Part shown: in pieces, positions 4,380 through 6,083 of the stretch
Layout of the letters: the number at the start of each line of letters is the position of its first letter
How positions within the stretch are numbered: the first letter of the stretch is position 1
Sequence record: OM135583.1
Length of the DNA: 64,000 bases
From: Escherichia phage EP01
Direction: 5' to 3' (one strand)
Translations under genes and position numbers: made by a program
Notes under the pieces: model-generated
What the model saw: the letters and a program-made list of their open reading frames with translations, nothing else
Told to the model about the DNA's origin: nothing
Databases searched by the model: none

Positions 4380-4728
4380 CTAAAAAGCCCCAACCTTTCG
4401 GTCGGGGCTAAGCCTTGCGGCAACCTTGTCGGGGTTCCACCTGCTAAGGCAAGTGTTTGTACGAAACGCCGGGATTCGAACCCGGTTATTAAGCAGTTGA
4501 CGCTACTTAATATTTTTAAAAGGCCATATCTCGACCATATCCGAACGTTCCGTCAAAAACGCTACTCGGCTTACGGCAAAGATATTTCCTCGAATCGATA
4601 ATTCGGTGCGCCGTTTCTGCTGTGATGTAAGAGGGCATCAACAAATCATAAAGATTTATTAACACAATTCCTTACCCAGGGAACATCAGTCCGACGACTT
4701 ACCGGTAGCGACCCGGTTTCTTGTTTGG
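4380..4728 (-). ncRNA. candidate small stable RNA gene(s) (by position, T4 RNA species C/D-like)
   Basis: About 340 bp with no ORF, between tRNA-Arg and the next early gene; contains a tRNA-like T-arm (CCGGG-ATTCGAA-CCCGG at 4469-4485) and several stem-loops; boundaries not determined. Confidence 0.3.
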
Positions 4729-4802
4729 TCGAGGCAGAAGGATTCTAACCTTCAACCAACGGATTAGAAATCCGTTGCTCTATACAATTGAGCTATGCCT
4801 CG
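4729..4802 (-). tRNA. tRNA-Arg (anticodon UCU)
   Basis: Acceptor stem halves 4730-4736/4796-4802; T-arm 4737-4753; anticodon loop UUUCUAA. Confidence 0.8.
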
Positions 4803-5470
4803 TAGTTAAAATTCATTTTTCGACCTTTAAACCATCCTTCTGGAATTGGGTCAGTTTTCTTAATACGTTTAGAAACTTTTTCATCTAATGAATGAATCCA
4901 CATCATACCAAATTGGGAATTCTTTTCACCTTGTTGGTGTTTATTTCTGGCGTGAGATTCTTTCATTTTATTAATAGTTTCAGGAGTATGGGTCTTACCC
5001 AAGAAAGATTTAGTATTTAAAAATTTCTCTCTATACTTAGGATTATCCCAAAGCTGTTTAAACCTTTCTGAACCCATTTTACGGTATTTTTCTTTAAGGT
5101 CTGGGTCGTTCTCAAATCTGATTTTAAAAGCGGCAGCTCCTTTTAAGGAAGCTTCTTTCTTTTTATCCAAATATTCTTTAGTGTTTAAATGGCCCCAACC
5201 ACCTTCACCACCTAATTTCAAATTATAAACATCAGGGCGCTTTAAAAACTCTTCAGTCACAATATTCTTTTCTGACTCAAACATAGAGGTTTTATCGTCA
5301 AAGAACTCTAATATTTCTTTAGAAAAATTTTCTATACCATACTTGTCTTGGGCTCTTTTTAATAATTTACCAGAACCCATATATCCATCATCTAAATTTT
5401 CGGTAGAATGAGCGCCTATATAGATTTTATTATTAATTTTATTTGTTATTTTATAAATGTAATGGAACAT
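4793..5470 (-). CDS. segB: GIY-YIG homing endonuclease (SegB-like)
   Basis: 225 aa; N-terminal GIY-x10-YIG module (HYIYKITNKINNKIYIGAH); sits inside the tRNA cluster as in T4. Confidence 0.8.
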   Translation of the reverse strand: MFHYIYKITNKINNKIYIGAHSTENLDDGYMGSGKLLKRAQDKYGIENFSKEILEFFDDKTSMFESEKNIVTEEFLKRPDVYNLKLGGEGGWGHLNTKEYLDKKKEASLKGAAAFKIRFENDPDLKEKYRKMGSERFKQLWDNPKYREKFLNTKSFLGKTHTPETINKMKESHARNKHQQGEKNSQFGMMWIHSLDEKVSKRIKKTDPIPEGWFKGRKMNFNYEA

Positions 5471-5511
5471 AAATATCTCCTATTTCTAAGAGTATTTATG
5501 CTCCCAAAATA

Positions 5512-5583
5512 TGGCCCTGGGTGGAATTGAACCACCATCTGGCGATTATGAGTCGCTTGCTTGAACCTTCCAGCTACAGGGCC
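5512..5583 (-). tRNA. tRNA-Ile (anticodon CAU, Met-type anticodon presumably modified to read AUA)
   Basis: Acceptor halves 5513-5519/5577-5583; T-arm GGTGG-AATTGAA-CCACC; anticodon loop CUCAUAA. Confidence 0.8.
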
Positions 5584-5589
5584 TTGATA

Positions 5590-5662
5590 TGCTGATTGAC
5601 GGAATCGAACCGCCGACGTCCTCATTACAAGTGAGTTGCTCTACCTACTGAGCTAAATCAGC
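5590..5662 (-). tRNA. tRNA-Thr (anticodon UGU)
   Basis: Acceptor halves 5591-5597/5656-5662; anticodon loop CUUGUAA. Confidence 0.8.
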
Positions 5663-5669
5663 GAAATTA

Positions 5670-5756
5670 CGGAGGCGATAGGATTTGAACCTATGAGTCG
5701 CCGGAGCGACTGCCGGTTTTCAAGACCGGTGCATTAAACCACTCTGCCACGCCTCC
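5670..5756 (-). tRNA. tRNA-Ser (anticodon UGA)
   Basis: Acceptor halves 5671-5677/5750-5756; long variable arm; anticodon loop CUUGAAA. Confidence 0.8.
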
Positions 5757-5758
5757 AG

Positions 5759-5832
5759 TCTCCGCGGCAGGATTTGAACCTGCGACATTCTGCTCCCAAA
5801 GCAGACGCTCTACCAAACTGAGCTACACGGAG
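5759..5832 (-). tRNA. tRNA-Pro (anticodon UGG)
   Basis: Acceptor halves 5760-5766/5826-5832 (one G-U pair); T-arm GCAGG-ATTTGAA-CCTGC; anticodon loop UUUGGGA. Confidence 0.8.
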
Positions 5833-5845
5833 TAAATTAAATTTG

Positions 5846-5916
5846 AGCGGATAATGAGAATCGAACTCACATCATCAGATTGGAAGTCTGAGGTAATACC
5901 ATTATACGATATCCGC
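5846..5916 (-). tRNA. tRNA-Gly (anticodon UCC)
   Basis: Acceptor halves 5847-5853/5910-5916; anticodon loop CUUCCAA. Confidence 0.8.
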
Positions 5917-5925
5917 AAACTTTGG

Positions 5926-6009
5926 TACGAGAAGTGGGACTCGAACCCACAAGGAAATCATTCCGCAGCATTTTAAGTGCTGTGCCTTTACCAATTTGAC
6001 CATTCTCGC
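5926..6009 (-). tRNA. tRNA-Leu (anticodon UAA)
   Basis: Acceptor halves 5927-5933/6003-6009; long variable arm; T-arm GTGGG-ACTCGAA-CCCAC; anticodon loop CUUAAAA. Confidence 0.8.
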
Positions 6010-6010
6010 G

Positions 6011-6083
6011 CTGGGAATAAAGGACTCGAACCTTTGCATCCTGGAATCAAAATCCAGTGCCTTACCAACTTGGCTAATTCCCA
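6011..6083 (-). tRNA. tRNA-Gln (anticodon UUG)
   Basis: Acceptor halves 6012-6018/6077-6083; T-arm AAAGG-ACTCGAA-CCTTT; anticodon loop UUUUGAU. Confidence 0.8.

Follow-up and report, generated by a model that had tools for sequence, protein, structure and literature searches.

A T4-type tRNA operon with segB and homologues of the stable RNAs rnaD and rnaC in Escherichia phage EP01

The transfer RNA (tRNA) genes of bacteriophage T4 form a cluster (NC_000866, 70.9-72.5 kb) that the curated record orders Gln-Leu-Gly-Pro-Ser-Thr-Ile-segB-Arg-rnaD-rnaC, and that gives rise to a single precursor of ~1.75 kb, which terminates past the gene for species I RNA (PMC2330249, discussion). Its last two genes, for species 2 RNA (rnaD) and species 1 RNA (rnaC), were described in a 2022 omics study as 'RNAs of yet unknown functions', late RNAs in T4 that were validated by Northern blot (PMC9697503). 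The tRNA regions of T2L, RB1 and RB3 (AJ880101, AJ884577, AJ884578) also carry the genes of RNA species I and II (PMC2330249, Fig. 1 legend). We analysed 64,000 nucleotides (nt) of Escherichia phage EP01 (record OM135583.1; the whole stretch is referred to as the window) and conclude with high confidence that positions 4381-6180 are a Tequatrovirus (T4-like phage) tRNA operon.

The cluster of the window shares gene order, strand and anticodon set with that of T4. ARAGORN found exactly eight tRNA genes in the 64 kb, all of them minus-strand genes within 4726-6083, and the Rfam family RF00005 matched the same eight at 57-72 bits (gathering score 29; E-values 1e-9 to 1e-13). These are the eight tRNAs, with the same anticodons, that a first-pass annotation had folded by hand from the letters, and boundaries differ solely by the counting of CCA. 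At the gathering score, Rfam returned no other family in the window. Comparison with the annotated T4 genes places the eight co-oriented tRNAs in T4 order. As in T4, segB lies between the CAU-anticodon tRNA and tRNA-Arg, and rnaD, rnaC and the same intrinsic terminator, identified by alignment and terminator scan, come directly downstream of tRNA-Arg. The T2L, RB1 and RB3 regions, in contrast, are without segB and carry tRNAs for Met, Tyr and Asn as well as extra open reading frames (ORFs).

In database comparisons the region matched 968 phage records, almost all from T4-like Escherichia, Shigella, Salmonella and Yersinia phages; the best matches are 96-98% identical across the full 2 kb. The ORF-free tract at 4380-4728, which the first-pass annotation had taken for a likely source of T4-type small stable RNAs, is indeed homologous to the genes of T4 species 2 and species 1: it aligns at ~95% identity to T4 rnaD, rnaC and the terminator. 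Divergence starts past the terminator, where the sequence of the window is unrelated to T4 e.8. The tract alone has matches in 805 phage records, and none by blastn in 5,426 E. coli genomes. The gene identities and the homology to T4 features are direct observations, as are the RNA folds, the codon usage and the terminator described below; eight tRNAs with segB and rnaD/rnaC homologues are an ordinary, already described feature of T-even phages. The features of the locus are the following.

6153-6180, minus strand: candidate MotA-type middle promoter upstream of tRNA-Gln (motif read from the sequence)
6010-6083, minus strand: tRNA-Gln (UUG) (ARAGORN; Rfam 67.4 bits; 66/74 identical to T4, with the differences in the anticodon stem)
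5923-6009, minus strand: tRNA-Leu (UAA), CCA encoded (ARAGORN; Rfam 57 bits; 86/87 identical to T4)
5845-5916, minus strand: tRNA-Gly (UCC), CCA not fully encoded (ARAGORN; Rfam 65.8 bits; 72/72 identical to T4)
5758-5832, minus strand: tRNA-Pro (UGG), abutting tRNA-Ser (ARAGORN; Rfam 70.2 bits; 63/75 identical to T4, a different allele)
5669-5757, minus strand: tRNA-Ser (UGA), with a long variable arm (ARAGORN; Rfam 62.6 bits; 89/89 identical to T4)
5590-5662, minus strand: tRNA-Thr (UGU), CCA not encoded, whereas it is encoded in T4 (ARAGORN; Rfam 68.4 bits; 71/73 identical to T4)
5512-5583, minus strand: CAU-anticodon tRNA (ARAGORN; Rfam 59.9 bits; 47/74 identical to T4 tRNA-Ile)
4793-5470, minus strand: segB, free-standing GIY-YIG homing endonuclease gene, 225 amino acids (ORF list, Pfam, alignment with T4 SegB)
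4726-4802, minus strand: tRNA-Arg (UCU), CCA encoded (ARAGORN; Rfam 71.7 bits, the highest score in the cluster; 44/77 identical to T4)
4605-4724, minus strand: rnaD homologue, T4 species 2 RNA (homology; covariance model R2; covariation)
4460-4598, minus strand: rnaC homologue, T4 species 1 RNA, four-helix and tRNA-shaped (homology; covariance model R1; covariation)
4410-4459, minus strand: conserved 3' trailer that folds into a pair of small hairpins, CACUUGC/GCAGGUG and GCC-GCAA-GGC (fold)
4386-4409, minus strand: intrinsic terminator with a 10-bp stem, a GAAA loop and a U-run to ~4381 (terminator scan)

The rnaC homologue is 97.8% identical to annotated T4 rnaC over 139 nt, a full-length homology, and scores 165.8 bits with covariance model R1; its minimum free energy z-score is -3.5. 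Homologues gathered from a phage collection and from IMG/VR gave an alignment of 11 distinct sequences that represent four lineages, one of them T4-like, two of Enterobacter-phage types and one of another type. In the fold, a terminal stem of 8 base pairs (bp) joins positions 1-8 with 131-138 and contains two invariant U-U mismatches; positions 9-78 form a long irregular hairpin, 87-112 a 10-bp hairpin with an invariant CGUCAA loop, and 114-130 a canonical T-arm; a single A follows. The fold has 47 pairs, with standard pairs in 99% of the alignment cells and 12 pairs changed on both sides. None of 500 shuffles reached these values, and when the partners were slid by 1-3 columns only ~40% remained paired. 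Covariation across phage genera thus supports a conserved, tRNA-shaped fold of four helices. The alignment to selenocysteine tRNA (tRNA-Sec) had pointed to an acceptor stem formed internally, ACGGAACG/CGUUUCGU, which was rejected: its only variable pair, 49:136, is A-C in 3 of the 11 sequences, and it loses to the terminal 5'/3' stem, in which 4:136 switches from AU to GC.

A block of 44 nt in the rnaC alignment, columns 22-65, hardly varies in the four lineages, whereas the neighbouring helices have diverged. Variation here amounts to a single base each at columns 24, 49 and 61 inside it and 66 beside it, and the three of these that are paired stay standard. The block had no exact match in 185,579 species genomes, and we found neither extra rnaC copies in the window nor more distant homologues in the fetched loci. 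Some related phages lack rnaC precisely, with rnaD joining the trailer directly.

We compared rnaC with the tRNA-like domain of transfer-messenger RNA (tmRNA) and with class II and Sec tRNAs, in which 8 + 5 bp are stacked. Like them, rnaC has an acceptor-like stem stacked on the T-arm, followed by a single discriminator-like A. A long helix replaces the D and anticodon arms, and the 10-bp arm occupies the place of the long variable arm of class II tRNAs. Unlike tmRNA and Sec tRNAs, rnaC remains below every Rfam threshold (17 bits versus 47), and, unlike the tRNA-like systems, it has no anticodon loop, no G3-U70 pair and no messenger RNA (mRNA)-like part, and carries the two invariant U-U mismatches in its acceptor-like stem. 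No evidence of aminoacylation of rnaC was found. The RNA is therefore tRNA-shaped at its ends (8 + 5 bp acceptor/T stacking) without an anticodon arm, is a tRNA by no threshold, and is not a member of the tmRNA or class II/Sec tRNA families. ARAGORN and the GenBank record call the rnaC homologue of Enterobacter phage SonariX (L003 1504-1598) a 95-nt tRNA-Met, a false positive driven by the acceptor-like stem and the T-arm.

The same arm accounts for what had been noted as a perfect tRNA-like T-arm in the tract: CCGGGTTCGAATCCCGG belongs to rnaC as its T-arm, with the core GGTTCGAATCC beginning at minus-strand position 4482. That no canonical tRNA could be folded there also stands. Neither ARAGORN nor Rfam at the gathering score reported a tRNA or any other family in 4380-4728; at E<=10, Rfam gave hits of chance level and no RF00005 match over the tract, the sole relevant hit being tRNA-Sec-like (4461-4553; 17.3 bits versus 47). 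No cloverleaf with an anticodon arm above these thresholds is thus present in the tract, and Rfam 15 contains no family for rnaC or rnaD.

The rnaD homologue starts 2 nt after the CCA of tRNA-Arg and is 93% identical to annotated T4 rnaD over 118 nt (the T4 gene has 119 nt), so that both sequence and position identify it; covariance model R2 scored 143 bits at 4605-4725. We aligned 17 distinct sequences and derived a structure with RNAalifold. It comprises a 5' hairpin, ACCGG/CCGGU with the loop GUCGCUA, and a second hairpin, long and irregular, that GUCGUCG/CGGCG(C)AC closes. In this fold 96.8% of the cells are paired and 6 pairs have changed on both sides; pair 41:113, for example, is UA in 10 sequences, AU in 6 and another combination in 1. 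Covariation across phage genera thus supports the long irregular hairpin. An alternative helix, CUGAUG/CAUCA, showed mismatches in several lineages on inspection by hand and fits less well than the RNAalifold pairing with 41:113. The tip of the long hairpin is not conserved and consists of unrelated sequence in some lineages. The 3' end, ...GCGCACC followed by A in T4 and by G in the window, is tRNA-like.

Weak rnaD-like elements, significant with a covariance model at 23-30 bits and reaching down to 17 bits in L021, are found directly 3' of tRNA genes in the Kanagawavirus-type Enterobacter-phage contigs L002, L003, L005, L010, L019 and L021. Their common cores, UAAGUCGUCGG, UCCCUG and ACGGCGC, indicate that the rnaD family extends beyond the T4 group. 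A loose rnaD pattern also gave 75 genome matches, which we attribute to chance, as none of the 75 scores with model R2. In these searches, neither rnaC nor rnaD thus had a bacterial counterpart.

Many GenBank records annotate hypothetical proteins over the rnaC/rnaD tract. Taken at face value, these coding-sequence features would make the tract protein-coding, and small ORFs do exist in it, of 34 amino acids at 4497-4601 on the plus strand and of 49 amino acids at 4516-4665 on the minus strand (the ORFs of the tract span only 32-49 amino acids). The 49-amino-acid ORF, however, crosses the rnaD/rnaC junction, which does not exist in lineages with rnaC alone, and the RNA helices of the tract have undergone compensatory substitutions. 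Moreover, stable RNAs were detected from the T4 counterpart (PMC9697503), and the curated T4 record has misc_RNA over this region. We consider a coding tract extremely improbable.

Downstream of rnaC, the trailer is near-invariant in 16 distinct sequences, including phages without rnaC, and trailer and terminator are conserved to the same degree as rnaC and rnaD. In loci L027, L029, L033, L034 and L035, the trailer is kept where rnaC is precisely deleted. The terminator stem shows compensating changes between lineages (GCCCC/GGGGC versus GGCCC/GGGCC). The trailer could be a third functional RNA element, similar to a 3' external spacer, or a processing signal. In E. coli, 3'ETS-leuZ, the 3' external transcribed spacer (ETS) of a tRNA operon, acts as a small RNA, and 4386-4459 would resemble it, purely by analogy, as the 3' end of a tRNA-type precursor with a strong hairpin and a U-run. 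In five other loci, from close relatives (L009, L012, L017, L022 and L023), an insertion of ~0.5 kb is found just after the terminator, at the equivalent of ~4381 in the window, which is without it; the insertion contains one ORF (474 nt in phage PD112) and then a second copy of the terminator hairpin.

Upstream of tRNA-Gln, the candidate middle promoter consists of a MotA-box-like ATATGCTTTA at 6171-6180, a 12-nt spacer and a -10 element TATTAT at 6153-6158, an arrangement that we take to fit the T4 middle-promoter consensus. A sigma-70-like site is also present at 6218-6190; such sites are no more common in the window than in shuffled sequence.

Set against T4, the tRNA genes of the cluster form a mosaic. 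Those for Ser, Gly, Leu and Thr hardly differ from their T4 counterparts, whereas the Arg, CAU, Pro and Gln tRNAs are, judging by their sequences, other alleles. The codons read by the eight tRNAs all end in A. We counted codon usage in 54 long ORFs of the window, which has a GC content of 36%: among the codons for its amino acid, CAA (Gln) has a share of 69%, UUA (Leu) 42%, GGA (Gly) 38%, CCA (Pro) 42%, UCA (Ser) 29%, ACA (Thr) 31%, AUA (Ile) 21% and AGA (Arg) 29%. The codons read by these tRNAs are rare in E. coli. Because A-ending codons are frequent in this AT-rich genome, the eight tRNAs most likely supplement the host tRNA pool.

The assignment of the CAU tRNA (5512-5583) requires a choice between Ile and Met. 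It is 100% identical to the 'tRNA-Met' of T2 and RB3 and at least 99% identical to sequences in 448 phage records, whereas only 47 of 74 positions agree with the sequenced tRNA-Ile of T4; ARAGORN, judging by the anticodon, labels it Met, as do most other phage records. These labels would make it an elongator tRNA-Met that is not modified with lysidine. However, the closest E. coli gene (75-81% identity) is annotated tRNA-Ile in 5423 of the 5426 genomes. An E. coli gene annotated tRNA-Ile that carries a CAT anticodon shares with the CAU tRNA the entire anticodon stem-loop, AGCGACUCAUAAUCGCCAG, and acceptor pairs 1-6, including C4-G69 and C5-G68, which are presumably determinants for TilS. The tRNA thus combines a CAU anticodon with acceptor and anticodon-stem features that are Ile2-like rather than Met-like. 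In addition, some recent phage records label it tRNA-Ile, and with AUA at 21% of the Ile codons a reader of AUA would be the more useful gene. We regard Met identity as rather unlikely; the gene most likely encodes tRNA-Ile2, read as Ile after lysidine modification. Of the earlier Ile(CAU) call, the anticodon is confirmed and the Ile identity, favoured by the nearest E. coli gene, probable.

The segB gene had also been named from the letters, as a homing endonuclease gene splitting the tRNA cluster, and both its sequence and its place agree. Pfam PF01541 (GIY-YIG) matches the N-terminal part of the protein at 26.6 bits (cut-off 22.6), and 182 of 221 residues (82%) are identical to T4 SegB in a gap-free alignment. 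Y17 and G19, mutation of which abolishes SegB activity (PMC13096335), are kept (...NNKIYIGAH...). The ORF thus has the GIY-YIG domain with its Tyr and Gly, full-length similarity to T4 SegB and a tRNA-flanked location. It is 4 amino acids longer than T4 SegB, and its stop lies inside tRNA-Arg: with the TAG at 4795-4793 and the 5' end of the tRNA at 4802, the overlap is 10 nt, as estimated earlier.

Among the records compared, this overlap is seen in the window alone. In relatives, segB ends ...ATG AAA TTT TAA, with the stop 3-5 nt before tRNA-Arg, whereas the gene in the window has one A fewer and ends ...ATG AAT TTT AAC TAC GAG GCA TAG, 10 nt into the tRNA. A 1-nt deletion at ~4811-4813 on the minus strand thus converts the C-terminus KF* of SegB to NFNYEA*. 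None of 242 related records has the deletion, and the nine closest match over the stretch at 80/81, with one gap and otherwise identical. Two explanations are at hand, a private mutation and a sequencing error in the homopolymer. That the overlap is a sequencing or assembly error, and not a real feature of the phage, is suggested by its dependence on a single absent A in GAAATTTT, the extra base being kept in all the related records retrieved. Natural single-base deletions, however, also happen, this one affects only the last two SegB residues and so is probably tolerated, and within the window itself there is no sign of error at this point. We give the artefact a tangible but minority chance.

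T4 SegB cuts inside tRNA genes, recognizing ~27 bp with the core GGTTCRANTCC, which corresponds to the T-arm; its preferred target is the tRNA-Asn gene of T2L, and in mixed infection segB and the flanking tRNA genes are inherited at nearly 100% (PMC2330249). Cleavage and homing activity were shown for T4 and T6 SegB (PMC2330249, PMC13096335), and according to a 2026 paper SegB also promotes the segmental amplification of anti-defence loci, those of tRNAs included (PMC13096335). By analogy, SegB of the window would target the T-arm motif in tRNA genes of segB-less phages, and so spread itself together with the flanking tRNA genes, which would explain why the tRNA alleles form a mosaic. SEA1 and UP19, two phages without segB, have tRNA-Asn directly upstream of tRNA-Arg, the position of segB in the window. 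As far as sequence can tell, the placement of segB and the allele mosaic are consistent with homing and co-conversion.

The tRNA next to segB has an unusual elbow. With a D-loop of AAUUGUAUA and a T-loop of UUAGAAU, tRNA-Arg (4726-4802, minus strand) has U19-A56 in place of G19-C56, the near-universal tertiary Watson-Crick pair with an exposed face of which the ribosome, RNase P and T-boxes make use (PMC4810234). In 22 phage tRNA-Arg(UCU) genes covariation of 19 and 56 was perfect (U19 with A56, n=8; G19 with C56, n=14), and among 103 distinct tRNAs parsed from all fetched loci A56 was confined to this tRNA-Arg lineage. The gene keeps A20 and C35, which we take to be identity elements for arginyl-tRNA synthetase. 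Its allele family has ~200 phage records at at least 90% identity and more distant relatives in Klebsiella phages, and the T4 allele is a minority form (66 records); the T2L tRNA-Arg, judged from published primers, is of the ordinary GG D-loop type, unlike that of the window.

The C56-to-A change converts the SegB core motif GGTTCRANTCC into GGTTAGAATCC. The exact motif is present in six tRNA genes of the window and in rnaC, and absent from those of Gly and Arg. Simple self-immunity, with the A56 allele tied to an adjacent segB, is an appealing idea that finds no support as a simple rule: A56 also occurs without adjacent segB, in L017, L018, SEA1 and VR20, and segB is joined to this allele in only ~62 records, versus ~200 that carry the allele.

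The acceptor pair 3:70 of this tRNA-Arg also varies, being A3-U70 in the window and G3-C70 in phage VR20; some alleles (L023 1501-1577, L025 1501-1577 and L030 1436-1512) have G3-U70. G3-U70 is the alanine identity pair. In these relatives it is probably a mere intermediate of compensatory change.

How might the RNAs of the operon be made, and what might they do? By analogy with T4, the whole cluster would be transcribed as one precursor, starting upstream of tRNA-Gln, containing in order the eight tRNAs, the segB mRNA, rnaD and rnaC, and ending at the terminator (4409-4386). It would then be cut into its parts by host enzymes, with RNase P acting at 5' ends, trimming at 3' ends and the CCA-adding enzyme taking part. 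rnaD and rnaC would be freed from this tRNA precursor as structured RNAs with tRNA-like ends, rnaC presenting its 8-bp terminal stem on a canonical T-arm with a discriminator-like A at the end, and rnaD a terminal stem and then ACC. Such ends would explain processing and stability of a tRNA kind, and processing and stabilization through tRNA-like ends is the best-supported statement about the two RNAs. The single precursor, the enzymes and the stability of the transcripts would carry over from the T4 literature.

A literature search for a published function of RNAC or RNAD found nothing beyond 'unknown'. Our working guess is that rnaC and rnaD may bind a protein sequence-specifically, because the 44-nt block of rnaC is almost invariant across genera. 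Several points weigh against this account of the operon and its RNAs. Promoter use, precursor and mature ends are carried over from T4, and the promoter upstream of tRNA-Gln is a candidate defined by motif match only. Four of the eight tRNAs, and SegB, are clearly unlike those of T4, so that details of processing or identity could differ. Conservation is the only sequence support for protein binding; finally, some related phages lack precisely rnaC and the tRNA region is reportedly non-essential (PMC2330249), so that any function in trans would be dispensable under laboratory conditions.

These last observations also suit another explanation, in which rnaD and rnaC are inert, being decayed tRNA genes or structured spacers that aid protection or processing of the precursor 3' end and have no function in trans. 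Besides the clean loss of rnaC in several related phages, where rnaD abuts the trailer, and the dispensability of the tRNA region for phage development (PMC2330249), the hairpin tip of rnaD has been swapped wholesale in some lineages, and ~50 years have passed without a function being found (PMC3014915, PMC9697503). However, columns 22-65 of rnaC are all but invariant in the same lineages in which the neighbouring helices have changed on both sides, which argues for sequence-specific constraint beyond folding, and rnaD cores are recognizable in distant Kanagawavirus-type contigs. In addition, a 2025 study reported one convergent rnaD single-nucleotide polymorphism in three T4-like phage lines adapting to a semi-permissive host, a single study in which the mechanism was untested (PMC12685909). 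On this evidence inertness is possible, if on the unlikely side.

It is more doubtful still that rnaD, rnaC and the trailer are tRNA-shaped decoys or sponges for a host factor acting on tRNA, for instance a defence nuclease or an enzyme of processing or modification, an idea to which we assign a small probability. It would be compatible with the near-invariant block of rnaC, the restriction of the RNAs to phages, the lineage-only A56 and the convergent rnaD mutation. The U19-A56 swap of tRNA-Arg may belong to the same conflict, as it would keep the tertiary pair while altering both the T-loop DNA motif of SegB and the T-loop RNA recognized by host enzymes. Whatever probability lies beyond inert by-products and decoys goes to an undefined sequence-specific role of rnaC and rnaD.

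Outside the operon, five minus-strand ORFs (3728-4291, 6715-6939, 7008-7316, 7377-7649 and 7726-8013) start with MKT[YF]xEF, which resembles the leader that targets internal proteins of T4 to the capsid. Those four that lie upstream of the tRNA cluster match PHROG families of internal head or virion proteins, and the downstream one, of 187 amino acids, matches a PHROG family of unknown function. The T4 late promoter core TATAAATA occurs 24 times in the whole window (10.4 expected from shuffles), an excess that fits a T4-like genome.

The findings mainly confirm the T4-like phage origin of the window and the accuracy of the hand-folding in the first-pass annotation. Beyond that, their value lies in RNA families that lack annotation, in an invariance within rnaC that lacks an explanation and in the compensated elbow pair of tRNA-Arg. 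With the alignments and the structures supported by covariation it would be possible to seed rnaC and rnaD families and to correct the hypothetical-protein annotations. For what the two RNAs do, a 50-year-old question in the best-studied phage, the tRNA-shaped fold and the near-invariant block offer a concrete bait for pull-down. tRNA-Arg provides a clean natural swap of G19-C56 to U19-A56 beside an endonuclease that reads the T-loop sequence in DNA, a small case, open to testing, in which a selfish gene and tRNA structure are in conflict.

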